NCBI GenBank assembly: GCA_025965495.1
Contig: JAOPWW010000339.1
Coordinates: 1-30,174 of the forward strand
Length of the DNA: 30,174 bases
Direction: 5' to 3'
From: Frankiales bacterium
GTDB taxonomy: Bacteria; Actinomycetota; Actinomycetes; Mycobacteriales; SCTD01
Of this stretch, positions 1,166 through 30,174 are shown piece after piece; within the stretch, counting starts at the first letter, position 1; each line of letters begins with the position of its first letter. The notes beneath the pieces are model-generated. The model had not been told where the DNA came from, did no database searches, and worked only from the letters and a program-made list of their open reading frames with translations. Position numbers and translations under genes: made by a program.

Positions 1166-1200
1166 CCTCCGTCCCGTCCCCGCCCTCGAGGAGCACCCGC

Positions 1201-3802: not shown

Positions 3803-3833
3803 GCCGCTGTCGCGCAGCAGGAGGTCGGGCCCG

Positions 3834-4691: not shown

Positions 4692-4720
4692 TTGCGACAA
4701 TGGTCGGACCAAAGTACGTT
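4692..4720 (+). promoter_or_regulatory. Putative SigA/HrdB-type promoter for the 4814-9684 operon
   Basis: -35 TTGCGA (4692-4697), 17 nt spacer, -10 TACGTT (4715-4720), in an AT-enriched island. Confidence 0.65.
4701..4711. promoter_or_regulatory. FadR/GntR-family operator 1 (TGGTC-G-GACCA)
   Basis: Perfect palindrome matching the FadR/LldR-type TGGTCnGACCA core, inside the -35/-10 spacer. Confidence 0.7.
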
Positions 4721-4813
4721 CGGCGCCTGCGCGCTGCTGGGTTGCCGCACGACCGCACCCTCCGGCCCGCCCTGCGCGCCCGGCCCCACCCGCCCGAGGA
4801 GACGAGAAGCGAC

Positions 4814-6463
4814 ATGACGACGACGACGGTGACCGAGGCCCCCGCGCCCGAGGTCCGCTACTCCTCAGAGCTCGTCGCGCAGTTCCGGGGAGACGGGTAC
4901 TGGCGCGACGAGTCGCTCACGCAGTGGGTGAAGCACTGGGCCGACCGCAAGCCGGACGCCGTGGTCGTCACCGACGGCGACGCCAGCCTCAGCTGGGCCG
5001 AGCTGCGGGACCAGTCCGCGCGCTTCGCGAAGGCGCTGAAGGGCCTGGGTGTCGTGGCCGGCGACCGCGTGCAGGTGCAGCTGCCCAACTGGGCCGAGTT
5101 CACCGTCGTCTACGCCGGCATCGCCCGCATCGGCGCCGTGCTGGTGCCGACCATGCCGATCTACCGCTCGGACGAGGTGCGGTACGTCTTCCAGCACTCG
5201 GCAGCCAAGGTCTCCGTCGTCCCCACCACGTACAAGGGCTTCGACCACGCCGGCATGGTCGGAGCGCTGCGTGACGAGGTCGAGACCCTGACCGGGATCG
5301 TCACGGTGCGTGGCCGCGCCGAGGGCGCGCTGTGCTTCGAGGACGTCATCACCGGTCCGGTGCCCAGCGACGACGAGCTCGGGCCCGTGCCGAGCGCCGA
5401 CGCGCCGCACGCGATCATGTACACCTCGGGGACGGAGTCGCGGCCCAAGGGCTGCACCCACACCTTCAACACGATGAGCTTCACCATGTACGGCCTGGGC
5501 CAGGACATCCTGGGCTACGGCCCCGACTCGGTCGTGTTCATGCCCTCGCCCGTCACGCACGCGACCGGTCTGGCCATGGGGGTCGCCTCCCCGATCGTCG
5601 CGGGCAGCGCCATCCACCTCATGCCCGCGTGGGAGGCCAAGGACGGCTTGCGCCGGATCCAGGAGTTCGGCTGCACCCACACGATGACGGCCACGCCGTT
5701 CGTGCGCATGGCTCTCGACGCGCTGACGCCGGAGGACGACCTGAGCAAGCTCGAGGTCTGGGCCTCTGCCGGCGCGCCGATCCCGGCGAGCCTGCTGACG
5801 GAGTTCCAGAGCGCGCTCTCGACGACCGTCCTGCTCCCGGTGTACGGCAGCAGCGAGGGGCTGCTCGCCACGGCCTGCCGCCTCGACGACCCTGCGGACA
5901 AGGTCCTCACCTCCGACGGCCGCCCCAACCCCGGCGTGGTCATGGAGCTGCGCGCCGAGGACGGCTCGGTGGTGAGGGCCGGCCAGGCCGGCGAGGGCGA
6001 GATCTGCTTCGGCGGCCCCGGCCTCATGCTCGGCTACTGGAACGACCCGGACAAGACCCGGGCCGCGATCGACGAGCAGGGCCTGCTGTCGACCGGCGAC
6101 GTCGGCCGCTTCGACGAGGACGGCTTCATGCGCGTCACCGGTCGCATCAAGGACATCATCATCCGCGGCGGCACGAACATCTCGGCACGCGAGGTCGAGG
6201 ACAACCTGCTGGCGCACGACCGCGTGGCCGCGGTCGCGGTCGTGCCCGTGCCGGACGAGCGGCTCGGCGAGATCGGCTGCGCGTTCGTCGTGCCGAAGGG
6301 CGAGCCGCCGACGCTCGAGGAGCTGTGCACGTTCCTGCGCGACGACCGCAAGATCGCGATCCAGAAGCTCCCGGAGATGCTCCGCATCGTCGACAGCCTG
6401 CCGATGACCGCCACGGGCAAGGTCCAGAAGTTCGTGCTCAAGACCCAGCTCGCGACGTCCTGA
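4814..6463 (+). CDS. Acyl-CoA synthetase (AMP-binding; cyclohexanecarboxylate-CoA ligase-like subgroup)
   Basis: YTSGTESRPKG P-loop, YGSSE, TGDVG, GRIKDIIIRGG, TATGKVQK; SD GAGGAG before ATG 4814. Confidence 0.9.
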   Translation: MTTTTVTEAPAPEVRYSSELVAQFRGDGYWRDESLTQWVKHWADRKPDAVVVTDGDASLSWAELRDQSARFAKALKGLGVVAGDRVQVQLPNWAEFTVVYAGIARIGAVLVPTMPIYRSDEVRYVFQHSAAKVSVVPTTYKGFDHAGMVGALRDEVETLTGIVTVRGRAEGALCFEDVITGPVPSDDELGPVPSADAPHAIMYTSGTESRPKGCTHTFNTMSFTMYGLGQDILGYGPDSVVFMPSPVTHATGLAMGVASPIVAGSAIHLMPAWEAKDGLRRIQEFGCTHTMTATPFVRMALDALTPEDDLSKLEVWASAGAPIPASLLTEFQSALSTTVLLPVYGSSEGLLATACRLDDPADKVLTSDGRPNPGVVMELRAEDGSVVRAGQAGEGEICFGGPGLMLGYWNDPDKTRAAIDEQGLLSTGDVGRFDEDGFMRVTGRIKDIIIRGGTNISAREVEDNLLAHDRVAAVAVVPVPDERLGEIGCAFVVPKGEPPTLEELCTFLRDDRKIAIQKLPEMLRIVDSLPMTATGKVQKFVLKTQLATS

Positions 6464-6465
6464 CC

Positions 6466-7380
6466 GTGGGCGGGCCGCAGAGGGTGCAGGTCGGGATCGA
6501 CCTGCACCGGGCGATCACCGGACTCGACCCGGACGAGCGCGCGGCCGTCCTCGCCCGTGTGGAGGAGCACGGGCTCGACCACGTGGGGGTGGGCGACCAC
6601 GTCTCGTTCCACGACGGCACCGGCTTCGACGGTCTGATCGCGAGCGCGGTCGCCCTGGCGGGCACCCGCACCACGTCCGTGAGCGTCGGCATCTACCAGC
6701 TCGCGCTCCGGCACCCGCTGACCGTCGCGCGCCAGCTCCACGACCTCGAGCGCCTCGCCCCGGGGCGGCTCGTCCTCGGTGTCGGCGTCGGCGGGGAGGA
6801 CCGGCGCGAGGTCAGCAACTGCGGCGTCGACCCTTCCACCCGGGGCAAGCGGGTCGACGAGTCGCTCGGACTGCTGCGCCGTCTGCTGTCCGGCGAGGTC
6901 GTCGACCACGAGGGCGAGTTCTTCACGCTCGAGGGCGCGTCCATCGCCGACGCGAAGGTCGTCCCGCCCGTGCTGGTCGGCGGCCGCGGCGACGCCATGG
7001 TGCGCCGCGTCGTCGAGCACGGCGACGGCTGGCTCGGCCTGTTCGTCTCGCCCCGCCGCTACGGCCAGGCGGTCGAGCAGATCCGCGCCGCCGCCGCAGA
7101 CACCGACCGCGACCCGGACCGCTTCGCCCTCAGCGTCTGGTGCGCCTTCGGCGGCGACGCCGAGCGGGCCCAGCTGTTCCAGGGTCTCGCCGACCTGTAC
7201 CGCGCCGAGGAGGAGGCGCTCGCGCCGTACGTCCCGGTCGGGTCGCCCGCCGAGCTCGCTGCCTTCCTGCGCCCCTACCGCGACGCCGGCTGCACGTCCT
7301 TCACGATCATGCCGGGCCACCAGCGCTCGGTCGATGTGGTCGACCAGGTCGCCGAGCTCGCGGAGCTGCTGGCTGCCTGA
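6466..7380 (+). CDS. Luciferase-like monooxygenase (LLM) family oxidoreductase, possibly F420-dependent
   Basis: GDHVSF, LRHPLTVARQL, GRLVLGVGVGG, GDGW motifs; GTG 3 nt after the upstream stop; start approximate. Confidence 0.8.
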   Translation: MGGPQRVQVGIDLHRAITGLDPDERAAVLARVEEHGLDHVGVGDHVSFHDGTGFDGLIASAVALAGTRTTSVSVGIYQLALRHPLTVARQLHDLERLAPGRLVLGVGVGGEDRREVSNCGVDPSTRGKRVDESLGLLRRLLSGEVVDHEGEFFTLEGASIADAKVVPPVLVGGRGDAMVRRVVEHGDGWLGLFVSPRRYGQAVEQIRAAAADTDRDPDRFALSVWCAFGGDAERAQLFQGLADLYRAEEEALAPYVPVGSPAELAAFLRPYRDAGCTSFTIMPGHQRSVDVVDQVAELAELLAA

Positions 7381-7422
7381 CCCGTCCGGCTCCTCCCGTC
7401 TGCAGATCGAAGGACCCCTCGC

Positions 7423-8319
7423 GTGACCTCCTCGCCCTACCGTCCGGACCTGCTGGCCGACAAGCGCATCCTCATCACCGGCGGCGGCACCGGCCTCGGT
7501 CGCGGCGTCGCGCGGCACCTCGTCGAGCACGGCGCGGAGGTCCACCTGTGGGGCCGCCGGCAGGCGGTGCTCGAGGAGGCCGCCGCCGAGGCGTCCGCGT
7601 CGCGGCCCGGCAGCGTCCACGTGCACACCGTCGACGTCCGTCAGTTCGACCAGGTCGACGCCGCCGTGGAGCGGATCTGGCAGGAGCAGGGACCGCTGAC
7701 CGGCGTCCTGAACAACGCCGCCGCGAACTTCATCGCCCCGACCCACACGCTGAGCCCGCGGGCCTTCGAGGCAGTGACAGGCACCGTCATGCACGGGTCG
7801 TTCCACACCGCGCTCGCGACCGGTCGCCGCTGGATCGAGCAGGGCCTGTCGGGCAGCATCGTGTCGACGCTGACCACCTGGGTGTGGACCGGCTCCGCGT
7901 TCGTGGTCCCGTCCGCCATGGGCAAGGCTGCCGTGCACGCCATGACGATGTCGCTCGCCGTCGAGTGGGCCAAGTACGGCATCCGCGTCAACGCGCTCGC
8001 GCCCGGCCCGATCCCCACCGAGTACGCGTGGGAGATGCTCAACCCGACCGAGTCGAGCGCGGTCGGTGCCACGCAGGCGGACCAGATCCCGGCCGGTCGG
8101 ACCGGGACCGTCGAGGAGCTCGCGAACCTCACGATGTTCCTGCTGTCGGACGCCTGCGACTACCTCACCGGCCAGACCATCGCCATGGACGGCGGCCAGA
8201 TGCTGGCCGGCCCCGGCACCTTCGCCGGCCTGACCGGGATGTCGGACGAGGACTGGGCCCAGGCCCGCGAGAAGAGCATGGCCGCCACCGCGGCGAGCAA
8301 GGCCCAGCGCTCCGTCTGA
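7423..8319 (+). CDS. SDR oxidoreductase, 2,4-dienoyl-CoA reductase (DECR)-like
   Basis: ITGGGTGLG, NNAAANFIAP, TGSAFVVPSAMGK, SLAVEWAKYGIRVN and PGPIPT closely follow the DECR1 pattern. Confidence 0.8.
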   Translation: MTSSPYRPDLLADKRILITGGGTGLGRGVARHLVEHGAEVHLWGRRQAVLEEAAAEASASRPGSVHVHTVDVRQFDQVDAAVERIWQEQGPLTGVLNNAAANFIAPTHTLSPRAFEAVTGTVMHGSFHTALATGRRWIEQGLSGSIVSTLTTWVWTGSAFVVPSAMGKAAVHAMTMSLAVEWAKYGIRVNALAPGPIPTEYAWEMLNPTESSAVGATQADQIPAGRTGTVEELANLTMFLLSDACDYLTGQTIAMDGGQMLAGPGTFAGLTGMSDEDWAQAREKSMAATAASKAQRSV

Positions 8320-8352
8320 CGGAGCGCACCACCTCGACGAAGGAGCACGGAC

Positions 8353-9684
8353 ATGCGCGCAGCAGTCGTCGGAGGCGGCCCCGCCGGGTGCGCCGCGGCC
8401 TACACCCTCTGCAAGCAGGGACACGACGTCGTGCTGCTCGAGGCGCAGGACCACGTCGGCGGGCGCACCAGCCAGGTGCGCAAGGAGGGCTTCAACCTGG
8501 GGTCGGGCGCCCTGTTCCTCATGGGCGGCATCTACCCGCGCACGAACGCGCTCATCGAGGAGCTCGGCCACGCCGGCGAGATGGTCGGCTGGGACGCCCA
8601 CACCCACGTGCTGGACGCCGACGGCAGCCGGTACCGCGTCGAGTTCGACCAGGTCCTGAGCTTCCTGAAGATGCCCGTCCTGTCGCTGCTCGACAAGGCG
8701 CGCATCGCCGCCGGCGTCGCGAAGCAGCTGGTCTCGGGGGGGTCGTCGAGCTGCTTCGACGGGGCGGAGCTCGCCCGGCACGACCGCGGGGAGACGCTCG
8801 AGACGTGGTCGCGCCGCGTCCTCGGGGACAAGGGCCACGACTACATCACCGTGCCGTACATGGGCTTCCTGTACGCCGTACCGATGAGCTGGCTGTCGAC
8901 GTCGCTGTTCCAGGCGATCGTCCAGCAGTTCTACAAGCTGCGCCTGGCCGTGCCGCCGGAGGGGATCGGGCAGATCAGCGACTGGCTCGTGGCCGGCTCC
9001 CCGGGGCTGGACCTGCGGCTGTCGAGCCCGGTCGAGGCGGTCGAGCGGAGCGGGACGGGCTACCTGGTGCGGGCGGCCGGGACGACGCACGAGGTGGACG
9101 CCGTCGTGGTCGCGTCCGAGCCGGGGGTCAGCGCCGACCTGCTGCAGGGCCTCGCGACCGAGGAGGCCGTCGTCAAGCTGCGTGGCTGCCGGTACTCCGA
9201 GTACGCCCACGCGCAGGTCTGCTGGACGACCGACCCCTACCCCGGCCAGGACGTCAGCGTCGTCCTGCCGGCGCGACAGCCCGACGCCGTCTGGGGCGCG
9301 GCGGTGCTGCAGAGCCACCGCCACCCCGGCGCCGTACCGCCCGGCGGTCAGGCCGTCGGGGTGTACTTCTACACGCCGCCGCTCGCGACGATGACCGACG
9401 AGGAGATCTCGCAGGCGGCCGTGGACGCCGCCCGGGCCGCCTACGGCCCCGCGCCCGACCCGGACTTCGTCGAGCTGTTCCACTTCGAGCGCGGCCTGTC
9501 CATCGCCGGACCGGGTCACTACGCGACCATGAGCACGCTGCACGCCGAGATGCCCCCGGGTGTCGCGCTCGCCGGCGACTACTTCGCGCACGCGGGCGTG
9601 GAGGCGGCGGTCCTGTCGGGTGAGCAGGCGGCAGCGCGCGCCGTGGCGTCGGCGGCGAGCGCGTCCGAGCCGGTCCCGGCGTAG
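8353..9684 (+). CDS. FAD-dependent oxidoreductase, amine oxidase/protoporphyrinogen oxidase fold, substrate unknown
   Basis: VVGGGPAG Rossmann motif, EAQDHVGGR, C-terminal LAGDYF...VEAAVLSG; SD GAAGGAG. Confidence 0.8.
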   Translation: MRAAVVGGGPAGCAAAYTLCKQGHDVVLLEAQDHVGGRTSQVRKEGFNLGSGALFLMGGIYPRTNALIEELGHAGEMVGWDAHTHVLDADGSRYRVEFDQVLSFLKMPVLSLLDKARIAAGVAKQLVSGGSSSCFDGAELARHDRGETLETWSRRVLGDKGHDYITVPYMGFLYAVPMSWLSTSLFQAIVQQFYKLRLAVPPEGIGQISDWLVAGSPGLDLRLSSPVEAVERSGTGYLVRAAGTTHEVDAVVVASEPGVSADLLQGLATEEAVVKLRGCRYSEYAHAQVCWTTDPYPGQDVSVVLPARQPDAVWGAAVLQSHRHPGAVPPGGQAVGVYFYTPPLATMTDEEISQAAVDAARAAYGPAPDPDFVELFHFERGLSIAGPGHYATMSTLHAEMPPGVALAGDYFAHAGVEAAVLSGEQAAARAVASAASASEPVPA

Positions 9685-9690
9685 CGCACA

Positions 9691-9715
9691 GGCGGGTGGT
9701 CCTGGACCACCCGCC
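9691..9715. terminator. Putative bidirectional terminator between convergent genes
   Basis: Perfect inverted repeat GGCGGGTGGTCC-T-GGACCACCCGCC between stops at 9684 (+) and 9727 (-). Confidence 0.7.
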
Positions 9716-9726
9716 GCCGGTCCCCC

Positions 9727-11277
9727 TCAGTGAAAGCGCGACCGCAGCTCGACCTTGAGGACCTTGCCGGTCGGGTTGCGCGGCAGCGCGTCGAGCACCT
9801 CGAGGCGCTTGGGCAGCTTGTAGCGCGCGAGGCGCGCACCGGTGTAGGCGCGGACGTCCTCCAGGGTCGGGGCCTCGGCGCCCGGCGCCAGGGCGACGAC
9901 CGCGCACACCGCCTCGCCCCACTGCTCGTCGGGCACGCCGATCACCGCGACCTCGACGATCGCCGGGTGGTCGTACAGCACGCTCTCGATCTCGGCCGGG
10001 TAGATGTTCTCCCCGCCGGAGATGACCATGTCCTTGATGCGGTCCGAGACGTAGTAGAAGCCGTCGGCGTCCCGGTGGCCACCGTCGCCGGTGTGCAGCC
10101 AGCCGTCGGCGTCGATCGCCTTGGCGGTCGCCCCGGGGTCGTCGAGGTAGCCGAGCATCACGACCGGGCCGCGGGCGCAGATCTCGCCGACGGTGTCCGG
10201 CTCGGTGACGGTCCGGCCCTCGACGTCCTTGAGGCAGATCTCGACGAACATCGGCGGCCGGCCGGTGGAGCCGAGCTTGCTGAGGGCGTACTCCGGCGTG
10301 AGGAAGCAGAGCATCGGGGAGGCCTCGGTGAGCCCGTAGCCCTGCGCGAAGTCGATCCCCCGCGCGAGGTAGGTGCGGATCAGGCCCTCGGGCAGGGGCG
10401 CCCCGCCGCACAGGCAGCTGCGCAGGGTGCGGAGGTCGGTGTCGGCGAACGTCGGGTGCGCGGCCATGAACTGGAACATGGCCGGCACGCCGAACATCGT
10501 CGTGACGCGGTGCTCGGCGACGGCCGCCAGAGCCGCGCCCGGCTCGAACGCCCGCTGCACGACCAGGTGGCCGCCCTTGATCCAGGTCGCGAGCGTGAGG
10601 CAGTTGAGCGCCCCGATGTGGAAGAGCGGGGCCACGACCAGGGAGACGTCGTCGTAGCCGAGGTCCATGGTGGTGATGAAGTTGACGTTGTTCCACCACA
10701 TGCTGGCGTGGCTGAGCATCGCGCCCTTCGGGCGGCCCGTCGTGCCGGACGTGTACATGATCGCCGCGCAGTCCTCGGGGCGGGTCGGGGCCAGCTCCGC
10801 GAGCGGCTCGTGCGCCGCGACGAGGTCCTCCCAGGACTCCCAGCCCTCGCCTGCACCGTCGACGGCGACGTACCGCTCGACGGTGCCCAGCCCGCTGCGC
10901 AGGCCGTCCACGAGCGGGCGGTGCACGCCGTCGACGAGCAGGACCCGGACCCGGGCGTGGTCGATCATGTACGCGAGCTCGGGTCCGGTGCACCGGAAGT
11001 TCAGCGGCACGTACGTGGCGCCGAGCGCCGCGGCGGCGAACAGCCCCTCGAGGATCTGGGGCTGGTTGTGCCCGAGGAACGCCACCCGGTCCCCGGGCCC
11101 GACCCCGGAGCTCTGCAGCGCTGCCGCCAGGCGCCGGGTCCGGTCCTCGAGCTGCCCGTAGGTCTGCGTGACGCCCTCGAAGGTGATCGCGGGTCGCTCC
11201 GGGGTGGAGCGGGCGCGCCCGGCGAACCAGGCCGCCAGCGTGAGGTCGGCGGGCGCTGCGAGGGCGCGGTCGTTCAT
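9727..11277 (-). CDS. Long-chain-fatty-acid--CoA ligase family protein (FadD/MenE-like)
   Basis: YTSGTTGRPKG, QGYGLTE, WLHTGD, DRIKDMVISGGENIYPAEIE, RNPTGKVLK; start taken at ATG 11277 (MNDRAL). Confidence 0.9.
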   Translation of the reverse strand: MNDRALAAPADLTLAAWFAGRARSTPERPAITFEGVTQTYGQLEDRTRRLAAALQSSGVGPGDRVAFLGHNQPQILEGLFAAAALGATYVPLNFRCTGPELAYMIDHARVRVLLVDGVHRPLVDGLRSGLGTVERYVAVDGAGEGWESWEDLVAAHEPLAELAPTRPEDCAAIMYTSGTTGRPKGAMLSHASMWWNNVNFITTMDLGYDDVSLVVAPLFHIGALNCLTLATWIKGGHLVVQRAFEPGAALAAVAEHRVTTMFGVPAMFQFMAAHPTFADTDLRTLRSCLCGGAPLPEGLIRTYLARGIDFAQGYGLTEASPMLCFLTPEYALSKLGSTGRPPMFVEICLKDVEGRTVTEPDTVGEICARGPVVMLGYLDDPGATAKAIDADGWLHTGDGGHRDADGFYYVSDRIKDMVISGGENIYPAEIESVLYDHPAIVEVAVIGVPDEQWGEAVCAVVALAPGAEAPTLEDVRAYTGARLARYKLPKRLEVLDALPRNPTGKVLKVELRSRFH

Positions 11278-11321
11278 CGGTAACCCTGCGGTCGGGGTAC
11301 GGCTGGAGTCGTCATGCCGGG

Positions 11322-11384
11322 ACGATAGAGCACATGCGCGCATTAGGTCAGACCTTTACAGGACTGGGATCGCGTCCGTAGGGT
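11322..11384. promoter_or_regulatory. Putative divergent promoter pair
   Basis: + strand: -35 TTTACA (11355-11360), 18 nt, -10 TAGGGT (11379-11384). - strand: -10 TATCGT (11327-11322) with a weak -35 near 11345-11351. Confidence 0.5.
11345..11355. promoter_or_regulatory. FadR/GntR-family operator 2 (AGGTC-A-GACCT)
   Basis: Perfect palindrome, same core as operator 1, in the AT-rich divergent intergenic region. Confidence 0.68.
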
Positions 11385-11412
11385 CCGACTCCAGACCGAC
11401 ACCGGAGGCGGC

Positions 11413-13532: not shown

Positions 13533-13606
13533 TCCTGGTTCGTCCCGTGCCTGCCTGCGTGAGCCCGCTGTTCCGGTGGATGGGCGTCCGGGGCCTCGCG
13601 GAGGTG

Positions 13607-13622
13607 TGGTCAGACCTATAGT
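13607..13622 (+). promoter_or_regulatory. FadR/GntR-family operator 3 (TGGTC-A-GACCT) overlapping a -10 box TATAGT
   Basis: Shares GGTCAGACCT exactly with operator 2; -10 at 13617-13622, 34 nt before the TTG start at 13657. Confidence 0.65.
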
Positions 13623-13656
13623 CGTGACGTCCGCCACTCGACCGAGGGAGCAGCCG

Positions 13657-16935: not shown

Positions 16936-16946
16936 TCCTTCCTGAC

Positions 16947-16976
16947 CATCCCCACCCCCCCGAACGGGGGGAGATG
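16947..16976. promoter_or_regulatory. C-run/G-run inverted repeat (terminator or regulator-binding site)
   Basis: CATC..CCCCCCC-GAAC-GGGGGG-A-GATG in the 113-nt gap before yrbEA. Confidence 0.45.
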
Positions 16977-17020
16977 CCCGACATGCGGTGGGTTATGCCA
17001 GGCACCTGTGACCTCTTACG

Positions 17021-17034
17021 GTGACGCGAGTCAC
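17021..17034. promoter_or_regulatory. CRP/FNR-like palindrome GTGAC-GCGA-GTCAC (GTGA-N6-TCAC)
   Basis: Inverted repeat overlapping a candidate -10 TACGGT (17017-17022), just upstream of SD GGAGGT. Confidence 0.45.
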
Positions 17035-17048
17035 GACGGAGGTAGCCC

Positions 17049-18236: not shown

Positions 18237-18249
18237 AGGGTCGCTGACA

Positions 18250-19122: not shown

Positions 19123-19135
19123 GAAGGCTGCCCCG

Positions 19136-22610: not shown

Positions 22611-23890
22611 TCCCCCAGGGACGCGACCGCAAGCCGGCCCTGGTCGGGATCGGCATGGTCGGGCTGTTCGGCCTCAGCCTCGGCCTCGCCTTCACCATCG
22701 CCAGCAACGTGCCGGGCCGGCACTACACGGTCGCCAAGGCCTCCTTCAGCGACGTCGGCGGCCTGCGGGTCGGCGACGACGTCCGGGAGAACAGCGTCCG
22801 CATCGGCCAGGTGCGCGCCATCGACGTCGGGGAGCACGGTGGCCTCGTCACCCTGCAGATCGACGGCCAGAAGGAGCTGTACTCCGACGCCAAGGCGGCG
22901 CTGCGCGCCCGCTCGTCGCTCGGCCAGACCTACGTCGACCTGGCCCCCGGCACGGCGGCCAAGGGCGCTCTGCCGAAGGCCGGCATCCCGGTGGCGGCCA
23001 CCTCGGCACAGACGCAGCTCGACGACGTGCTCAACGTCTTCGACACGAAGACCCGCAAGCAGGCGGCCGACGTGCTGGCCACGACCGGCCACGGCGTCGC
23101 CGGTCACTCGCAGGACGTCAACGACTTCCTGGCGAACGGTCCCGACACCTTGAACGCCCTGGGTGCCGTCACCGGCGCCGCCGCGAGCAAGGAGGCCGAC
23201 GTGACGAGCCTCATCGCCACGTCGGGCCGGCTCGCCTCCCGCGTCAGCGACCAGCAAGCCGAGATCGCGGGTCTGGTGCGCGACACCGGCACCGTCCTCG
23301 GCGCCGTCGCCACCGAGGACGGCACGCCGCTCCAGCAGACGCTGGTCGAGCTCCCCAGCACCCTCGCGGCCGCCCGCGTCGGTCTGCACGAGGCGGAGCA
23401 GCCGCTGCAGGACACCGCCGACGCGCTGACCGCCCTGCGCCCGGCCGCCCGCGACCTCGGCGCCGTCACGCCCGCGCTCCGCAAGACGGTGCGCGACCTG
23501 GTCCCTCCGCTCGAGAAGGTCCCGGGCGTCGCCGGCAAGACGAGCACGGCCGTCACGAGCCTGCGCAGGACCGCGACGGACCTCCGCCCGCTGGCCCCGA
23601 AGATCACCAAGGGCCTGTCGCTCGGCAACGACCCGCTCGAGGTGCTCGCCCCCTACGGCCTCGACATCGGGCTGTTCTTCGACAGCTTCGCCCGCACGGT
23701 CGAGAACTCCAACCCGGACGGCAGCCACTACGTCCGCATCGACGTCACCGAGACCACGCAGGTCCTCAGCGGCAACGTCCCGGTGGCCGACCCGCTGAGC
23801 AAGCGCGACCCCTACCCGAAGCCGCGCACCGCGCGCGGACCGGGCGCTCCCTACGGCTACGACGACCCCCAGGCGAAGGGCACCCCATGA
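22607..23890 (+). CDS. mce: MCE-family protein 3
   Basis: N-terminal TM; GLRVGDDVRENSVRIGQV...SSLGQTYVDLAPG; GTGA overlap. Confidence 0.88.
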   Translation: MIPQGRDRKPALVGIGMVGLFGLSLGLAFTIASNVPGRHYTVAKASFSDVGGLRVGDDVRENSVRIGQVRAIDVGEHGGLVTLQIDGQKELYSDAKAALRARSSLGQTYVDLAPGTAAKGALPKAGIPVAATSAQTQLDDVLNVFDTKTRKQAADVLATTGHGVAGHSQDVNDFLANGPDTLNALGAVTGAAASKEADVTSLIATSGRLASRVSDQQAEIAGLVRDTGTVLGAVATEDGTPLQQTLVELPSTLAAARVGLHEAEQPLQDTADALTALRPAARDLGAVTPALRKTVRDLVPPLEKVPGVAGKTSTAVTSLRRTATDLRPLAPKITKGLSLGNDPLEVLAPYGLDIGLFFDSFARTVENSNPDGSHYVRIDVTETTQVLSGNVPVADPLSKRDPYPKPRTARGPGAPYGYDDPQAKGTP

Positions 23891-25167
23891 CCGCCACCCC
23901 GCGCCCCGGGCGCGTGACCACGATGCAGATCGGCATCACGCTGGTCGTCCTCGTCCTCGGCCTCGGCACCGTCCTGTTCCAGAAGAACTACCTGAGCACC
24001 AAGCTCGCCTCCGGCGAGACGGTCAAGGCGGACTTCTCCCGGGACTACCGCCTGCGCCCCTACATCAGCAAGGTGAAGGTGGCCGGCGTCGTGGTCGGCA
24101 CGGTCACCGGCGTGAAGGCCCTCGACAAGGGCGCTGCTCGCGTCACGATGAAGCTCGAGGACGGCACGCGCGGCAAGGTCGGTGCGGCACCCTCGGCGAA
24201 GATCCGTCCGGCGACCCTCCTGGGCGGCAACTACTACGTCGACCTCGTGCCGGGTGGTGACCGCACCAGGAAGCCCGGGTCGGTCATCCCGCTGGCCCGG
24301 ACCACGGTCCCCGTGGAGCTGGACGCCGTGCTCACCGCGCTGCGCACCCCGCAGCGCAAGGCGATCCAGGACGTGCCGCGGCAGCTCGACGGCGCGCTCA
24401 CGCACGGCGGTACCAAGGGCCTGCAGGAGCTCGCCGTCGCGGCGCCGGACAGCCTCCGCCGCGCCGCCGACGTCCTCGAGGCCGTGCGAGGCACCCAGCC
24501 CGAGTCGGACCTGCAGAAGCTCGTCCCGGGCCTGCAGTCCACGGCCCAGCAGCTCTCGAAGCGCCCCGGCCAGCTCGAGGGCAGCAGCGCCGACCTCGCC
24601 GTCGGCAGCGAGGTGCTCGCCCAGCGGGCCGCCGCCATCAACGCGACGCTGGCCCGGGCCCCGCTGGCGCTGGACCAGACGCGCGAAGGCCTCGCCCGCC
24701 TGTCCGGCGTCCTGGACGCGCTCGACGAGACGTCCGTGGCCGCCCGGCCGTCGGTCCGCGAGCTCGGCCGGTTCCTCGACAGCGCGGAGCCGGCCGTCCG
24801 GGCAGCCCGCCCGGTCGTCGCCGACCTCCGTCCGCTGATGACGGACCTGCGCGCCACCACCCACGAGCTCCTGCCGGCCGTCGGGGCGGCACAGACCGTG
24901 GTCGACGACGTCCGCGGGCCGGTGATCGACCGGGTGCGCGGCCCCATCACGCAGGCACTGGTGAAGCCGTACCGCAACGGCGACGAGTTCTACAAGTCCT
25001 TCGCCTCCTTCTGGTCGAACATGAACGGCACCTCGATGATCTCCGACCGGAACGGCAGCCAGATCGGGTTCCAGCCCGGCTTCGCCGGTGAGACGCCCCA
25101 GACGCCCGAGATCAAGAGCGTGATCGACCTGCTCACCTCCATCGACGAAGCCGGAGCCGTCAAGTGA
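23887..25167 (+). CDS. mce: MCE-family protein 4
   Basis: N-terminal TM; SKVKVAGVVVGTV...TLLGGNYYVDLVPG; ATGA overlap. Confidence 0.88.
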   Translation: MTATPRPGRVTTMQIGITLVVLVLGLGTVLFQKNYLSTKLASGETVKADFSRDYRLRPYISKVKVAGVVVGTVTGVKALDKGAARVTMKLEDGTRGKVGAAPSAKIRPATLLGGNYYVDLVPGGDRTRKPGSVIPLARTTVPVELDAVLTALRTPQRKAIQDVPRQLDGALTHGGTKGLQELAVAAPDSLRRAADVLEAVRGTQPESDLQKLVPGLQSTAQQLSKRPGQLEGSSADLAVGSEVLAQRAAAINATLARAPLALDQTREGLARLSGVLDALDETSVAARPSVRELGRFLDSAEPAVRAARPVVADLRPLMTDLRATTHELLPAVGAAQTVVDDVRGPVIDRVRGPITQALVKPYRNGDEFYKSFASFWSNMNGTSMISDRNGSQIGFQPGFAGETPQTPEIKSVIDLLTSIDEAGAVK

Positions 25168-26417
25168 GCGCCTCGCTCGCCCAGCGCTGGGCCCGCACGA
25201 AGGCCGAGCCCGGCCTCGGCCGGGACGTCCGCGTCCTCATCGCCACCGTCGTGGCCGGAGTGCTGGTGGGCGGCTACGTCCTGTTCATGCAGCGCGTCGA
25301 GCCCCCGTGGACCGGCAGCTACACCTTCGCCGGGGAGTTCCAGTCGGTGCCGGCCGTCAGCCCCGGCAACGGCCAGGAGGTCCGCATCGCGGGCGTCCCC
25401 GTCGGCTCCATCACCAAGGCGAGCGTGACGGACGCCGGCACGGCGAAGCTCACCATGAAGCTCGACGAGGGCACCGTCGTCTACAAGGACGCGAAGCTCC
25501 TGCTGCGCCCGAAGAGCCCGCTCAACGAGATGTACGTCGAGATGGACCCGGGCACCGCGAAGGCCGGCAAGCTGCGCGAGGGCGGCACGATCGCCAAGTC
25601 GCAGACGGCGCAGCCGGTCCTGGTCGACGAGGTCCTCGGCAACCTCGACAAGCGCAGCCGCGACGCGCTCAGCAGCCTGCTCGCGGAGTCGGACGTGGCC
25701 CTGGCCCACGCCCAGCCCGACCTCGTCGACGGCATCGGGTCGGTCAAGGACACCGTCGTCGACCTCAAGCCGCTCGCGACCGCCCTGCAGACCCGCCGCG
25801 ACAAGATCGCCCGGCTCGTCACCGACGTCAGCCGCATCTCCCAGGTGGTGGGCGGCAAGGACCAGCGCCTCGCCGCCCTGGCGAACGACACGAGCCGCAC
25901 GCTGGCCACGGTGTCCAGCAACAACGACGCCCTGTCGGCCAGCCTCGCCGACCTGCCGGGTGTGGTCGACGAGCTCGGCAACGCGACGAGCAAGGTCGAC
26001 GGCCTCGCCGACGAGCTCACGCCCACGCTCAAGGACGTCACCGCCGCCAGCAAGGACCTCCCGCCGGCCCTGCGCGAGCTGACCGACACGGTCGAGAGCC
26101 TGCGCACGTTCTCGGACAAGGCCCGCCCGGTGATCGCTGACGCCCGGCCGGTCGTCGCCGGCCTGCGCCCCGTGGTCCGCGACCTCAACACCTCGCTGCG
26201 CCGGATCAGCCCGATCACCGCGAAGCTCGACCAGGACACGGCCCTGCTGGTGCCGTACCTCGTCGGGGTGCAGGACTTCTTCTACAACACGATGCAGCTC
26301 ACGACCCTCTCGGACGCCAACGGCGGCATCTTCCGCGGCATCGTCCAGGAGGGCTCGACCGCCCTGCCCGTCACCGCCCCCGGCATCCCCGCCGCGACCT
26401 CCCGGAGCGCCAAGTGA
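25164..26417 (+). CDS. mce: MCE-family protein 5
   Basis: N-terminal TM; GQEVRIAGVPVGSI...SPLNEMYVEMDPG; GTGA overlap. Confidence 0.88.
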   Translation: MSASLAQRWARTKAEPGLGRDVRVLIATVVAGVLVGGYVLFMQRVEPPWTGSYTFAGEFQSVPAVSPGNGQEVRIAGVPVGSITKASVTDAGTAKLTMKLDEGTVVYKDAKLLLRPKSPLNEMYVEMDPGTAKAGKLREGGTIAKSQTAQPVLVDEVLGNLDKRSRDALSSLLAESDVALAHAQPDLVDGIGSVKDTVVDLKPLATALQTRRDKIARLVTDVSRISQVVGGKDQRLAALANDTSRTLATVSSNNDALSASLADLPGVVDELGNATSKVDGLADELTPTLKDVTAASKDLPPALRELTDTVESLRTFSDKARPVIADARPVVAGLRPVVRDLNTSLRRISPITAKLDQDTALLVPYLVGVQDFFYNTMQLTTLSDANGGIFRGIVQEGSTALPVTAPGIPAATSRSAK

Positions 26418-27721
26418 AGCTGCACTTCTCCGCCGCCTCGCTGCCCCGCTGGCGCCTGGGGACCGTCGTGGTCTTCACCCTGCTCAGCCTGGCGATGTTC
26501 CTGTTCCTCTGGGTCAACAGCGGCGGTCACCTCCCGGGCGTCGGCAACACGTACAGGGTCGCCGTCCAGGTGCCGAACGCCCAGAACCTCGTCGCGAACT
26601 CCGACGTCACGGTCGCCGGAGTGAAGATCGGCAAGGTCGAGTCGATCAAGACCGTGAACGGCGTCGCCCGGGCCGTCCTCGGCCTGGACCACGAGGTCGT
26701 CCCGCTGCACGAGGGCGCCACGGTGGCCCTGCGCAGCAAGACCCTCATCGAGGAGACGTACCTCGACATCTCCGACGGCTCCGGCAAGGCCATGGCGAGC
26801 GACGCGGTGCTGCCCGTCACGGCGACCAAGCCGGCCGCGCACCTCGACGACGTCCTGAACAGCCTCGACAAGCCGACGCTCACCGCCCTCGGACAGCTGG
26901 TCCGCAGCGGGGACGACGCGACGCAGGGTCGCTCGGCGGACATCGCCGCGACGCTCTCGGCCCTGGGCGTCCTCGGTCGGGACGGGCACGACGTCCTCGA
27001 CGCCCTCGCGGCCCAGGGCGAGGACCTCAAGACGCTGTCGCGCAGCACGACCCGGGTCCTGTCGGCGCTGGACACGAACCAGGGCGACATCTCCACCCTC
27101 GTCACCGCGGCCTCGGGCAACATGCGGGCCGGCGCGGCCCAGAAGGACGCGATCGCGGCCACCGTGACCCGTCTGCCCGGGACGCTGCGGTCGGCGCGCG
27201 CCGCCACCACGGACCTCCGCGTCCTGTCCCGCGACCTCGCTCCCGTCGCCCGCAACCTCAAGGTCGCGGCACCCGGCCTGCGCAGCACCGTCGCGGAGCT
27301 CCCGGAGGCCACCCGCCAGCTGGAGGCGACGATCCCGTCGCTGAACACGCTGCTCGACCGCGCACCGGCCACCCTGACCCGGGTGCCCGCCTTCAGCTCC
27401 GCCACCAGCGGGCTGGTCCCGCCGGCGCGGCAGGTCATGGCCGACCTCAACCCGATGCTCGGCTACCTCGAGCCGTACGGCCCGGAGATCTCCGCCTTCT
27501 TCACGACCATCGGCGGCGCCGTCAACCCGGTCGACGGGAACGGCGGGTACATCCGGGTCAACGCGATCTTCCAGCCCCAGTCGGTGACCGGGCTCCCCGT
27601 CGCCACCAACGGGCTGACCCCGGGGACGGGCGCGAACCCCTACCCTGCGCCGGGTGAGAACCGCGCCCCGAAGCCCGTGTTCACCGGCACGTACACGAGG
27701 GTGACCAGGGACGTGCCGTGA
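26414..27721 (+). CDS. mce: MCE-family protein 6
   Basis: N-terminal TM; NLVANSDVTVAGVKIGKV...TLIEETYLDI; DGNGGYIR; GTGA overlap. Confidence 0.88.
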   Translation: MKLHFSAASLPRWRLGTVVVFTLLSLAMFLFLWVNSGGHLPGVGNTYRVAVQVPNAQNLVANSDVTVAGVKIGKVESIKTVNGVARAVLGLDHEVVPLHEGATVALRSKTLIEETYLDISDGSGKAMASDAVLPVTATKPAAHLDDVLNSLDKPTLTALGQLVRSGDDATQGRSADIAATLSALGVLGRDGHDVLDALAAQGEDLKTLSRSTTRVLSALDTNQGDISTLVTAASGNMRAGAAQKDAIAATVTRLPGTLRSARAATTDLRVLSRDLAPVARNLKVAAPGLRSTVAELPEATRQLEATIPSLNTLLDRAPATLTRVPAFSSATSGLVPPARQVMADLNPMLGYLEPYGPEISAFFTTIGGAVNPVDGNGGYIRVNAIFQPQSVTGLPVATNGLTPGTGANPYPAPGENRAPKPVFTGTYTRVTRDVP

Positions 27722-30120
27722 GGTGGTCCCGCTCTCCGGCGGGACCTGGCACCGACCCGGACAGTCCGCCGCGACGCCGGCACGCGCGCCTCGCGCGTGC
27801 CGGCGCCGCGGCCGCCGTGGTGGCGGTGCTCGCCGTCCTGCTCGGTGGTGTCGCCCAGGTCCGCTTCGACACGAGCTTCTCCTCCCTGTTCGACCAGGGC
27901 ACCCGTGAGGGACGCGACTACGCCGGTGTCCAGAAGTCCTTCGGCGCGGAGCCGATCACGGTCCTCGTCGAGAGGCCCGGGGAGCCGAAGGCGCTGCTCA
28001 AGAGCGCCACGCTGCCCGCCCTGCTCAAGCTGGAGGGCGAGCTCGCCGGCCTCGACGACGCCGCGGTCGTCTACGGCCCGGCGACGGTCCTCAACCAGAT
28101 CGCCGCCAGCGCCCAGAAGTTCATCGTCCAGGTCACGGGCACCCGGGACGGCCTGCGGCAGCGGGCGGTCAAGGAGGCGAAGGAGCGGGGTGCGACCGAC
28201 GCCGAGGCGGCAGCCGCCGGCGACCGGGCGCTCGTGCCGTTCGACGAGCGGTACGGCGCCCTGCTGACCCAGGGCCTGCCGGCCGGCCTGCCGACGCTGC
28301 GCAACCAGAACTTCATCGACGCCACCGCGTACGGCAAGGACGGGAAGCCCCGGCCCGAGCTCCGGTTCGTCGTGCCGGACTCCACGTCGGTCGCGATCCT
28401 CGTCCGGCCCCGCGAGGGACTGGACCAGGACGCGGAACGGCGCCTCGAGTCGCAGATCCACGGCGTGCTGCGGCAGGACCCGATCCCCGGCAGTCACGTC
28501 CTGGTGACGGGTCCGGCCGTCGTGCTGCAGGCCCTCGCCGTGGACGTCCAGGGTCAGCTCCCCCTGCTGGCGGTGCTGGCCGTGGTCGCCGTCGCGACCA
28601 TGCTGCTCCTCGGGCACCGCCGCGACCTCCGGTCACCGCGGCGCGCGGCGCGCCTGCTCGTGCCGCTGCTGGCCAGCCTCGGTGCCGTGCTCGTCCTGAC
28701 CTCGGTGCTCGGCTGGGCGGACGTCCCGGCCACGCTCGGTCTGCTCACCCTGCTGCCCGTGCTGCTCGGCGTCGGCACCGACGTCCCGGTCTACCTCTCC
28801 CGGCTCGGCAAGGACCGTCGGCTGGCGGTCGCTGCGCTCGCCACCGGCGCCGGCTTCTACAGCACCGCGCTGTCCCCGGTCCCCTTCGTGCGCGGCCTCG
28901 GGCTGCTGCTCGGCACCGGTGTCCTGCTGGCCGCGGCGATCGGCTGGTTCCTGCCGGCGGTGGAGCCCCAGCAGCGCCCCGCTGCCGTCGCGCGCACCGC
29001 GACGACGCCCCGGTTCCCCGTGCGGACGCTGCGGGCGCTCACCCTCGTGGCTGCCGTCGTGGCCGCCGCCGGCTGGGCGGTGCTGCCCTCGATCGGCATC
29101 ACCTCCGACCCCGCCAGCCTGGCCAGCGGCCTCGGCGCCCTCGACGACGCCCACCGGGCGCAGGACAGGCTGGGCGCGATCAGCGAGATCGACGTGCTGC
29201 TCCGGGGCGACGCCCTCAGCCCGGCGGCGCTCGCGTGGTCGACGAAGGCCGCGGAGGCGGTGATCGTCCACGACGCCGACCGGCTCAAGCCGATCTCCTC
29301 GCCGGCGTCGCTGCTGGGCTTCCTCGGGCCGACGCCGACCACCGAGCAGGTCCGGTCGGCGGTCCAGCTCCTGCCGGCCTACCTGCTCGGGGTCGCCGTC
29401 GCGCCCGACGGCCAGTCCTCCGTCCTGTCCTACGGCCTGCGGGCCGACGACGTCGCCGGCCAGCAGGACCTCGTCGACTCCCTGCGCCGGCTGCTCCCGC
29501 CGCCGCCCCGCGACACCACCGTGTCGGTGACCGGAGTCCCGGTCCTCGCGAGCGCGCAGCTGCAGGAGCTCGAGCGCAGCCGGGTCAGTGCCAACGTCAT
29601 CGGTGTGCTCGTGCCGAGCCTGGTCCTGCTCCTGCTGCTCGGGCGGAGCCGCTGGCGCGACAGCGCCCTCGCTGCCAGCGCTGCGGTCATCGCCACCGGG
29701 ACCGGGTTCCTCCTGCTGTGGACCGCGGGCATCGCCTTCACGCCGTTGACCCTCGCCCTCGGCTCGCTCACGGCGGCGGTCGGGTGCGAGTTCAGCGTCG
29801 TCCTCGGGTCACGGCAGGGCGAGGACAGCCGCAGGGGCGTCCTGCTCGCCGCCGGCGCGTGCCTGGCCGGCTACCTGTCCCTGGCGGTGTCCGGGCTCGA
29901 CGTCATCCGGGACTTCGGGCTCGTCCTCGCCGGCTCCGTCGTCCTGGGCTACGCCAGCTCCCGGCTGGTCACGGCCGCCTGGGTGCCGACCGGCGCGGCC
30001 GACGGCGGAACGGCCCGAGGCGGCGTCAGGCAGGCAGACTCCGACCCGGCAGCACACGACGACGGTCCGGCGGACGCCCGCCGCCCCAGCCCCGCGATGA
30101 CCAGGAGTGCGACCACATGA
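27718..30120 (+). CDS. MMPL/RND-superfamily transporter (two TM+loop repeats, about 12 TM)
   Basis: TM1, large extracytoplasmic loop, VTG, 5 TMs, repeated twice; TM4 GVGTD and TM10 AVGCEF acidic motifs; SPVPFVRGLG / SGLDVIRDFG repeats. Confidence 0.8.
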   Translation: MRWSRSPAGPGTDPDSPPRRRHARLARAGAAAAVVAVLAVLLGGVAQVRFDTSFSSLFDQGTREGRDYAGVQKSFGAEPITVLVERPGEPKALLKSATLPALLKLEGELAGLDDAAVVYGPATVLNQIAASAQKFIVQVTGTRDGLRQRAVKEAKERGATDAEAAAAGDRALVPFDERYGALLTQGLPAGLPTLRNQNFIDATAYGKDGKPRPELRFVVPDSTSVAILVRPREGLDQDAERRLESQIHGVLRQDPIPGSHVLVTGPAVVLQALAVDVQGQLPLLAVLAVVAVATMLLLGHRRDLRSPRRAARLLVPLLASLGAVLVLTSVLGWADVPATLGLLTLLPVLLGVGTDVPVYLSRLGKDRRLAVAALATGAGFYSTALSPVPFVRGLGLLLGTGVLLAAAIGWFLPAVEPQQRPAAVARTATTPRFPVRTLRALTLVAAVVAAAGWAVLPSIGITSDPASLASGLGALDDAHRAQDRLGAISEIDVLLRGDALSPAALAWSTKAAEAVIVHDADRLKPISSPASLLGFLGPTPTTEQVRSAVQLLPAYLLGVAVAPDGQSSVLSYGLRADDVAGQQDLVDSLRRLLPPPPRDTTVSVTGVPVLASAQLQELERSRVSANVIGVLVPSLVLLLLLGRSRWRDSALAASAAVIATGTGFLLLWTAGIAFTPLTLALGSLTAAVGCEFSVVLGSRQGEDSRRGVLLAAGACLAGYLSLAVSGLDVIRDFGLVLAGSVVLGYASSRLVTAAWVPTGAADGGTARGGVRQADSDPAAHDDGPADARRPSPAMTRSATT

Positions 30121-30174
30121 CGGCCCCCCGCCACCACGAGGACGTGCTCGACCCGCAGGCCGTCGAGGCCGGCG
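30117..30174 (+). CDS. 5' end of the next coupled gene (partial, MTAPRHHEDVLDPQAVEAG...)
   Basis: SD AGGAG at 30103-30107 and ATG overlapping the MMPL stop (ATGA). Confidence 0.6.
   Translation, partial: MTAPRHHEDVLDPQAVEAG

Follow-up and report, generated by a model that had tools for sequence, protein, structure and literature searches.

Actinomycetota take up lipids and sterols mainly through Mce transporters, which in mycobacteria are also virulence factors. The stretch of DNA analysed here (the window) is the entire 30,174-bp contig C166 (JAOPWW010000339.1, ~73% GC) of a metagenome-assembled genome (MAG) from a Frankiales bacterium (GCA_025965495.1, 58% complete), and it encodes the actinobacterial Mce lipid importer in a lineage-specific form, with a core of yrbEA-yrbEB-mceG-mceA-F. 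Four conserved extra genes accompany this core, encoding an RND/MMPL-like protein (RND, resistance-nodulation-division), a membrane-anchored PpiC/SurA-type prolyl isomerase (rotamase), a degenerate ABC protein (psABC), and a four-helix membrane protein with four transmembrane segments (TM; the 4-TM protein). Because raw lists of open reading frames are useless at ~73% GC, genes were called by frame analysis of third-position GC (GC3) combined with Pfam and NCBIfam profile matches (hidden Markov models, HMMs). All called genes are on the + strand, with 9727-11343 (- strand) as the sole exception. The gene blocks named in an earlier reading of this sequence (the original prediction), a catabolic block, a response regulator/kinase/ABC/4-TM module and a 13-kb Mce-RND operon, were all recovered by these calls, and the last two comprise the following genes:

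13576-14307, + strand, NarL/LuxR-type response regulator (Response_reg and GerE, from Pfam), with an alternative start near 13607
14304-15692, + strand, HisKA_3/HATPase_c sensor kinase with a GAF-like N-terminal domain (Pfam, hydropathy)
15689-16363, + strand, psABC, a degenerate ABC_tran protein of 224 aa (Pfam, translation)
16360-16935, + strand, 4-TM membrane protein of 191 aa (translation, AlphaFold2 (AF2) model)
17049-18236, + strand, YrbEA (Pfam MlaE, E 2e-57)
18250-19122, + strand, YrbEB (Pfam MlaE, E 5e-56)
19136-19933, + strand, MceG/MlaF-type ABC ATPase (Pfam ABC_tran; NCBIfam MlaF, E 3.8e-58)
19933-27721, + strand, MceA-F, six MlaD proteins (Pfam MlaD in all six)
27718-30120, + strand, RND-superfamily (MMPL/HAE3-like) protein of 800 aa (HMM, hydropathy)
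30117-30174, + strand, first 19 codons of the next gene, a probable PpiC/SurA-type rotamase

The Mce operon extends over 13 kb (17049-30120) in the order yrbEA-yrbEB-mceG-mceA-F-RND. Overlaps of 1 or 4 nt join successive genes from mceG onward, and the mceA-F genes are translationally coupled. An alignment of MceG showed that its catalytic motifs are all intact (GPSGTGKS, FQ, VSGGMRKR, LFDEP, and THN), with MlaF as the top NCBIfam match, and hydropathy analysis placed a single N-terminal TM segment in each of the six MceA-F proteins. The RND-like protein has ~12 TM helices and two large extracytoplasmic loops, as judged by hydropathy. Pfam MMPL recognizes it only marginally (21.6 bits, cut-off 20.5, no single stretch passing), its match to TIGR00921 HAE3 (E 1.3e-25) lies far below the family cut-off, and a PDB sequence search with it gave no match. 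The presence of an RND-like gene after mceF is conserved in relatives. Mycobacterial Mce1 and Mce4 share with the present system two distinct MlaE-type permeases, one MlaF/MceG-type ATPase, six anchored MCE proteins, small membrane accessory proteins, and a neighbourhood of lipid-catabolic genes. The window differs from them in that mceG is located inside the operon, between yrbEB and mceA, and in what follows mceF: no mam or mas genes were found 3' of mceF in the window, where the RND/MMPL-like gene and then the probable PpiC/SurA rotamase gene lie instead, and a degenerate nucleotide-binding domain (NBD) is added to the system.

The relatives referred to below include three genomes, G001 from the same genus as the window and G016 and G080 from two other genera of the same family, and L026, a soil metagenome contig that is the closest relative of the window, with Mce proteins 57-88% identical. 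Two unpublished genomes, G005 and G030, entered into tallies but carry none of the conclusions. YrbEA of the window begins with an acidic, Ala/Pro-rich N-terminal extension (residues 1-170; 17049-17560) preceding the MlaE domain; the extension is kept in L026 (385 of 395 residues aligned) and is not found in G016, G080, or a further locus of this Mce subtype, L037. On contig C11 of G001 (L021/L022), the yrbEA and yrbEB matches are broken across several reading frames, probably as a result of indel errors in a long-read assembly and not of real frameshifts.

The codons at 30117-30174 are probably the start of a PpiC/SurA-type rotamase gene, because another contig of the same genome, C169 (3.9 kb), opens within such a gene and because a rotamase gene follows the RND gene in relatives (L029, L031, L032, L035, L039, L041, L064, G016, and G080). 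C169 enters its PpiC-type rotamase at about residue 80, the encoded protein being 51% identical to that of L064, and the contig probably continues the window past 30174. The gene order on C169 (L100:3-950, 1041-1697, 1773-3584) is rotamase, MarR regulator, and AAA-lid/HTH_8 (Fis-type) regulator; if C169 does continue the window, two further regulators would be located directly 3' of the Mce cluster.

Of the ABC motifs in psABC, Walker A is kept (APSGGGKT, with GPSGAGKT nearly invariant in the family). The Q-loop site reads VPEGDG and the signature site LSRNDRRR, the H-loop His is missing, and the Walker B/catalytic Glu region is VVDGDLD, with a three-residue deletion, in place of hhhhDE. A protein search returned more than 500 homologues of ~223 aa and ~50% identity, mainly from soil metagenomes and Acidimicrobiia MAGs; the labelled relatives are, by name, MAGs of Acidimicrobiia, Actinomycetota, 'Frankiales', and 'Nocardioides'. 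Across 15 aligned members there is little or no variation in the P-loop and at the Walker B Asp, and the Q-loop, signature, catalytic Glu, and H-loop are all degenerate in the same manner. Since the same degeneracy runs throughout the family, the alignment identifies psABC as an old pseudo-enzyme state under selection and not as a product of recent decay. The retained and lost motifs suggest that psABC probably binds nucleotide without hydrolysing it. Degenerate sites are familiar in ABC proteins, for example in heterodimeric exporters, where Glu, His, or signature residues are lost, Walker A is kept, and nucleotide binding without turnover has a regulatory function. Unlike these, psABC is an entire free-standing NBD in which Q-loop, signature, Glu, and H-loop are lost together, and a pairing with MceG would leave both composite sites non-canonical.

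The original prediction had named this protein a pseudo-MceG. Its catalytic degeneracy is borne out by the motifs, but descent from MceG is not supported, as a psABC profile ranks the MceG of the window only 10th among the 36 ABC paralogues of its own genome. The top PDB matches of psABC are P-glycoprotein and other generic NBDs, MlaF falls outside the top 25 NCBIfam matches, and the likeness to MceG is limited to a C-terminal DPxVR-type motif, a similar version of which occurs in another ABC paralogue. Two variants of the protein were seen among relatives. The psABC orthologue of G016 (contig C271; L096:8342-8836, - strand) is only 164 aa long, an internal deletion having removed the signature/Walker B region, and may be a pseudogene or an assembly error. 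The ABC protein of L103 (294 aa; 8402-9286, - strand, of MIFY01000013.1 in GCA_001902615.1), whose gene adjoins a HisKA_3/GerE pair and a 4-TM gene, is degenerate at the signature and the Q-loop, still has the H-loop His and the Walker B Asp-Glu, and has a TM helix at its C terminus; it may represent a stage towards the degenerate NBD or a parallel form of it.

The genomic neighbourhoods of psABC were read at 21 loci, of which 15 were informative, with enough flank on the relevant side. In 14 of these 15, psABC directly adjoins mce, RND-like and/or rotamase genes, and a two-component system is present at only four of the loci concerned. The usual order is mceA-F, RND-like, PpiC/SurA rotamase and psABC, sometimes followed by the 4-TM gene; the alternative order RND-like, psABC, rotamase was also seen. 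L026 has the same psABC-4TM-yrbEA order as the window and lacks the two-component system.

The 4-TM protein consists of a basic, Pro/Ala-rich cytoplasmic N-terminal tail and a four-helix core, and carries the motif VRGASSGF. The long start at 16360 is backed by a basic N terminus that is conserved among homologues. Clustered at 50% identity, the family recovered by an exhaustive profile search comprises 184 clusters; none is annotated, and 149 score E <=1e-10. At all 12 informative loci the 4-TM gene is directly beside yrbEA or psABC, next to the mce operon, in arrangements that vary from one locus to another. Among the distant members sampled, the order is mce-RND-rotamase-psABC-4TM in L064, and in L106 the 4-TM gene comes after an ABC gene (201 aa); the 4-TM gene is divergent from yrbEA in L063, is followed by yrbEA in L101, with a TetR gene 5', overlaps yrbEA in L102, and forms part of an ACAD-LLM-4TM-yrbEA series in L105, together with a GAF-GerE regulator (ACAD, acyl-CoA dehydrogenase; LLM, luciferase-like oxidoreductase). 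The last four have neither psABC nor a kinase nearby. The AF2 model of the core (pLDDT 80.6) comprises four helices, and its best full-length match in an exhaustive VIA-align comparison was LucB of the Mycobacterium smegmatis Mce1 complex (8fed_K), which ranked second among 48,161 PDB representative chains, with 114 of 132 residues aligned at a root mean squared deviation of 4.4 Å.

The sensor kinase is cytoplasmic, with no TM segment by hydropathy, in agreement with the soluble kinase that had been predicted. Its translation contains an LHDG H-box in HisKA_3, an N box, and a G box, with HATPase_c recognized by Pfam, and the regulator has the receiver residues DD...D...T...K and, by Pfam, a GerE helix-turn-helix. 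Three GTGA start/stop overlaps, read from the sequence, connect the regulator, kinase, psABC, and 4-TM genes (13576-16935). The best matches to the regulator in G001, G016, and G080 are embedded in Mce clusters (E ~1e-43, against ~1e-24 for the next paralogue), and each of these genomes has one orthologue of the kinase (E 1e-34 to 1e-39) and no other match at <=1e-10. In these kinase orthologues Pfam recognizes a GAF domain, and their alignment with the kinase of the window is collinear. The order in the three genomes is yrbEAB-mceG-mceA-F-RND-rotamase, the regulator and kinase genes on the opposite strand, and psABC-4TM; the orthology therefore shows that the pair adjoins psABC in two different gene orders. 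In total, an orthologous two-component system is embedded in the Mce cluster in four genomes, three genera, and two arrangements. Similar pairs occur further afield: L103 has a FadD-kinase(HisKA_3)-regulator(GerE)-ABC series convergent with the 4-TM gene, which is itself divergent from yrbEA (the regulator being 42% and the kinase 33% identical to those of the window), and in L104 a GAF-HisKA_3 kinase gene is divergent from the 4-TM gene. In G001, where the psABC and kinase genes are divergent, their apparent starts are only ~6 nt apart (L023:4676-4683), which would mean that the promoters overlap or are leaderless, or that the start codons are mis-set.

The four genes had originally been interpreted as a sensory module in which the kinase acts with its ABC and 4-TM partners. 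The recurrent association of regulator, kinase, psABC, and 4-TM genes holds, with orthologues embedded in the clusters of all three related genomes, but the majority of psABC and 4-TM loci lack such a kinase/regulator pair and are found with mce genes. The direction of the module is therefore reversed: psABC and the 4-TM protein are components of the transporter cluster, and any role as sensory partners of the kinase would be secondary. The two-component system is a genuine, optional regulatory addition that joined psABC/4-TM in this clade and a small number of others. In L026, L065, and L105 a one-component GAF-GerE regulator stands in place of the pair. A simple swap of one-component for two-component control was considered and rejected, as the GAF-GerE regulator of L026 has no similarity to the GAF domain of the kinase and gives only a generic GerE match (46% over 50 aa).

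The region 5' of yrbEA contains a series of short elements:

16956-16971, no strand assigned, C6-GAAC-G6 palindrome/hairpin, ~78 nt 5' of the yrbEA start codon
16993-16998, + strand, -35-like TTATGC of a putative promoter
17017-17022, + strand, -10-like TACGGT of the same putative promoter
17021-17034, + strand, GTGA-N6-TCAC inverted repeat, overlapping the putative -10/+1
17038-17042, + strand, ribosome-binding site GGAGG, preceding the GTG start at 17049

Exact C6-GAAC-G6 occurs once in the genome, and the looser pattern C5-N6-G5 is not commoner there than a control. A C6-N4-G6 element is present 78-125 nt 5' of yrbEA in six of six loci of this Mce subtype (the window, G001, G016, G080, L037, and L026, the last with a 5-G arm), with invariant stems and loops of GAAC, GATC, GTTC, or AAAA, and is absent from the other Mce subtypes that carry a 4-TM gene. 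The palindrome is thus a conserved, locus-specific cis-element of this Mce subtype. An explanation of the palindrome as a mere terminator was rejected, because the upstream neighbour of yrbEA is divergent in L037 and, on the GC3 plot, apparently also in G001; there is, in addition, no T-tract. A palindrome at 16947 had been proposed as a possible site through which the kinase pathway activates the operon. The element is real and conserved, its position being 16956-16971, but it is not specific to this regulator, since it is also present in L026 and L037, neither of which has a two-component system nearby.

Common to the window and L026 is TTAYGM-N17/18-TACGGT, with GTGA-N6-TCAC and GGAGG after it, and this block is a candidate mce promoter with a putative operator over -10/+1; a simple sigma-70 consensus scan of 13300-17300 found no promoter. 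Relative to this candidate promoter the palindrome would be centred near -68, a distance compatible with an activator. The CRP-like override of the original prediction is not supported: the GTGA-N6-TCAC repeat, which resembles the core of a CRP/FNR-type site (TGTGA-N6-TCACA) and is conserved in L026, overlaps the putative -10/+1, a repressor-type position. It is not conserved in G001, G016, G080, or L037, where other palindromes are found. In G001, G016, and G080, the ~110 nt between C6-N4-G6 and the yrbEA start are strongly conserved across the three genera (L022:14880-15030, L097:10940-11095, and L099:9270-9425, all - strand), and these leaders hold two more palindromes, TGTGGCCTGGACCAC and GTGGC-N4-GCCAC, as well as repeated C6 runs, potential alternative pairing partners of the G6 arm. 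Rfam gave no match in the window apart from two chance-level matches around the palindrome, and the yrbEA leader does not fold better than shuffled sequences (z -1.05).

The catabolic genes lie 5' of the two-component system:

95-4643, + strand, ACAD, HMGL-like, two enoyl-CoA hydratase (ECH), and thioesterase genes, 5' of the region under study
4700-6463, + strand, FadD (Pfam/NCBIfam)
6466-7380, + strand, F420-type LLM oxidoreductase (Pfam/NCBIfam)
7423-8319, + strand, short-chain dehydrogenase/reductase (SDR; Pfam/NCBIfam)
8353-9684, + strand, FAD amine-oxidase-like enzyme (Pfam/NCBIfam)
9727-11343, - strand, FadD, second copy (Pfam/NCBIfam)
11413-12576, + strand, ACAD (Pfam/NCBIfam)
12573-13532, + strand, NMO-like enzyme (Pfam/NCBIfam)

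An Mce-RND lipid-uptake cluster with adjoining genes for the catabolism of hydrophobic substrates is supported, as had been proposed. The block at 4700-13532 is nevertheless a local neighbour and no conserved part of the system, contrary to the three-block synteny whose absence the original prediction had named as its refutation: no orthologues of the catabolic genes were found near mce in G001, G016, or G080. For the amine-oxidase-like enzyme none of the three genomes gave a match at E 1e-30, FadD is represented in them only by paralogues of 34-45% identity, which lie far away or on other contigs, and the surroundings of the G001 cluster hold only a 32%-identical ACAD paralogue. Other clusters have other neighbours. 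The 5' flank of L026 encodes a P450, ferredoxin, ferredoxin reductase, and GAF-GerE and AAA-GerE regulators, and L105 is neighboured by DmpFG-like, FadD, ACAD, and LLM genes. Related clusters thus adjoin different genes for hydrophobic substrates, and uptake next to catabolism is therefore a theme and not a fixed island. P450, ferredoxin, ferredoxin reductase, Zn-dependent alcohol dehydrogenase (ADH), and aldehyde dehydrogenase (ALDH) genes adjoin the clusters at L026:82-9975, L064:10657-14632, L065:2889-12209, and L036:2777-5508, which also adjoin GAF-GerE and AAA-GerE (LAL-type) regulators; neighbours of this kind suggest an alkane-, alcohol-, or terpenoid-like substrate in those lineages.

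A FadR-like repressor layer over the catabolic and signalling genes, also part of the original prediction, found no support. No GntR/FadR gene (PF00392) is present in the window, and all five matches in the genome, itself 58% complete, are on other contigs. The proposed operator GGTCNGACC occurs at four sites in the window (4702, 8095, 11346, and 13608) against 1.96 +/- 1.35 expected, a count reached in 10 of 100 shuffles, and was rejected as a FadR operator because this frequency is at chance level.

Accessory subunits and regulators of known Mce systems provide a frame for the role of the extra proteins. The accessory factors described to date include Mam proteins, LucA, LucB, and Mce1N (PMC13492129; 10.1101/2022.12.08.519548; 10.1101/2022.06.08.495402). 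LucB (MSMEG_3032/Rv2536) is a 4-TM accessory subunit that sits on Mce1C in the cryo-EM structure of Mce1, 8fed (10.1101/2022.12.08.519548). It shares with the 4-TM protein a small size, a four-TM core with a disordered cytoplasmic extension, and an occurrence with the hetero-hexameric Mce systems of Actinomycetota. The two differ in that the disordered tail is C-terminal in LucB and N-terminal here, in that lucB is unlinked whereas the 4-TM gene is beside the mce operon, and in the lack of detectable sequence similarity. On the modelled fold, a LucB-like role for the 4-TM protein is judged only slightly more probable than improbable. Mce1N (MSMEG_0959/Rv0513) is a negative regulator that competes with MceG at YrbE1B and so blocks docking (10.1101/2022.06.08.495402; PMC13492129). 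What it would share with the role proposed here for psABC and the 4-TM protein is that of a membrane-associated accessory at the cytoplasmic face of YrbE where the NBD docks; it differs in having two TM helices and a non-ABC cytoplasmic domain, with no homology, so that the likeness is a proposed functional analogy only.

Known regulators of mycobacterial mce loci are repressors of the GntR/FadR/VanR and TetR types and not locus-encoded two-component systems (PMC13492129). The known mce regulators comprise Mce1R and Mce2R (VanR/FadR types), Mce3R and KstR (TetR types), and the unlinked MtrAB (PMC13492129; PMC3552289). MtrAB influences the mce locus in Streptomyces coelicolor and Mycobacterium avium (PMC3552289), and is thus likewise a two-component system acting on mce transcription in Actinomycetota; it is, however, global, unlinked, and OmpR-type, with a membrane kinase, whereas the present system is of the NarL/HisKA_3 type, cytoplasmic, GAF-containing, and encoded in the Mce cluster. 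A search of open-access papers and preprints turned up no earlier account of an RND protein, a rotamase, a degenerate NBD, or an embedded NarL-type two-component system in an Mce cluster. The window represents a novel form of Mce system, in which psABC and the 4-TM protein stand for two accessory families that lack annotation.

In the mechanism that we favour, the 4-TM protein would bind the Mce complex at its membrane part, much as LucB binds Mce1C, and would hold psABC at the cytoplasmic face. There, psABC would bind nucleotide without turnover and modulate assembly or the engagement of MceG with YrbEAB, as a functional analogue of Mce1N or MlaB. The GAF domain of the kinase would sense an intracellular ligand, and the regulator would control its own operon, and hence the dosage of psABC and the 4-TM protein, and possibly also the mce promoter, on which C6-N4-G6 would lie at about -68 and GTGA-N6-TCAC over -10/+1. 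A more specific version can be formulated, in which the dead free-standing NBD, tethered by a LucB-like four-helix protein, is a built-in gate of the importer that competes or pairs with MceG at the docking face of YrbEAB, its dosage being set by the GAF-sensing two-component system, with the RND protein and the prolyl isomerase as further dedicated envelope components. Such a gate would amount to a 'pseudo-ATPase' kind of post-translational control over an ABC importer that has not been described before. We regard this version as conceivable and rather unlikely.

We consider it fairly probable that the window holds an Mce variant in which psABC, the 4-TM protein, the RND protein, and the rotamase are parts of the cluster, the two-component system is an add-on and the catabolic genes are non-conserved neighbours, the favoured mechanism being included in this estimate. 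Several points weigh against it. The data consist throughout of MAGs and metagenome contigs, and genomic association is the basis on which we infer an interaction of psABC, the 4-TM protein, and the Mce core. L025/L033, the sole exception among the informative psABC loci, has rotamase and psABC genes with no mce gene inside 10 kb, and one psABC clade has no adjoining 4-TM gene; an order-level survey found psABC in 0 of 300 genomes, with only 9 of ~150 ABC candidates per genome scored and a possibly biased sample. The Z score of the LucB match, 8.1, is within the chance range for helical bundles, a Foldseek search of the 4-TM model against the PDB gave nothing significant (E about 1), and two profiles of the 4-TM family gave no sequence match to LucB (8fed_K) at E up to 10. 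The TM domains of FtsX match the model nearly as well (VIA-align Z 7.0-7.3), and an alternative is that psABC and the 4-TM protein make up a degenerate pair of the FtsEX type whose function is separate. They would then form a self-contained type VII (FtsEX/MacB-like) unit for signalling or mechanotransmission, for example feeding the kinase as BceAB feeds BceS, and would be a neighbour of Mce and not a subunit. The two genes are indeed translationally coupled in the NBD-then-4-TM order of ftsE-ftsX, FtsX TM domains gave the highest Foldseek probabilities (up to 0.87, with a TM-score of 0.45 and none significant), LolC, HrtB, and YtrF are also among the VIA-align matches, and L103 again joins a signature-degenerate NBD, a 4-TM gene, and a HisKA_3/GerE pair. 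However, the 4-TM protein has no extracytoplasmic domain, many of its relatives stand alone beside yrbEA with no NBD or kinase near (L063, L101, L102, and L105), psABC is also found directly after the RND or rotamase gene without an adjoining 4-TM gene, and the fold matches are all in the chance range for helical bundles. We therefore hold such a pair to be improbable.

A similarly low probability is given to a two-component system with no relation to Mce, that is, a generic NarL-type pair serving the adjacent catabolic genes or other targets, whose synteny was inherited without function. The scarcity of the pair at psABC and 4-TM loci would fit this, as would the mere 43 nt that separate the ACAD-NMO genes from the regulator in the window, and no binding site of the regulator was identified. 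However, the orthologues have kept their place beside psABC in two gene orders and three genera, similar pairs are present in L103 and L104, which are more distant loci, the pair in the window is translationally coupled to psABC and the 4-TM gene, and it is the catabolic genes that are not conserved beside the pair. The layered circuit of the original prediction, with a FadR/GntR repressor, a kinase with psABC and 4-TM co-sensors, activation of mce through the palindrome, and a CRP override, is partly supported: the genes it names all exist and are tightly packed, GGTCNGACC is located at three gene starts (4702, 11346, and 13608), the two-component system is repeatedly linked to psABC/4-TM/mce, and the palindrome is conserved 5' of yrbEA at an activator-compatible position. 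As a whole it is nevertheless very unlikely. The window has no GntR gene and no enrichment of GGTCNGACC, the catabolic block is syntenic with neither mce nor the two-component system, psABC and the 4-TM gene accompany mce at most kinase-free loci, the palindrome is kept in L026 and L037 without the two-component system, and the GTGA-N6-TCAC repeat is placed as for a repressor. The regulatory circuit in that form should be treated with caution and not accepted at face value.

LucB and Mce1N were discovered only in 2022-2023. Two unannotated families are now seen to accompany Mce operons in uncultured soil Actinomycetota, together with an RND protein, a prolyl isomerase, and sometimes a cytoplasmic two-component system. 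If the dead NBD and the 4-TM protein do act on the transporter, they would provide a genetically linked, testable model for control of the LucB/Mce1N type, and would exemplify the regulation of an ABC importer by a pseudo-enzyme.

Two further repeats were examined in the catabolic block. The pattern GGTC-N3-GACC is found seven times in the window against 1.9 expected, but was rejected as an operator candidate, six of the seven sites being inside genes and the seventh in a hairpin at 9698. This hairpin is a perfect inverted repeat with 12-bp arms (9691-9715; GGCGGGTGGTCC T GGACCACCCGCC), located between the convergent amine-oxidase-like and FadD genes, and its centre is the sole FadR-like TGGT-N5-ACCA palindrome of the window (9697-9709). 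It is probably a bidirectional terminator.

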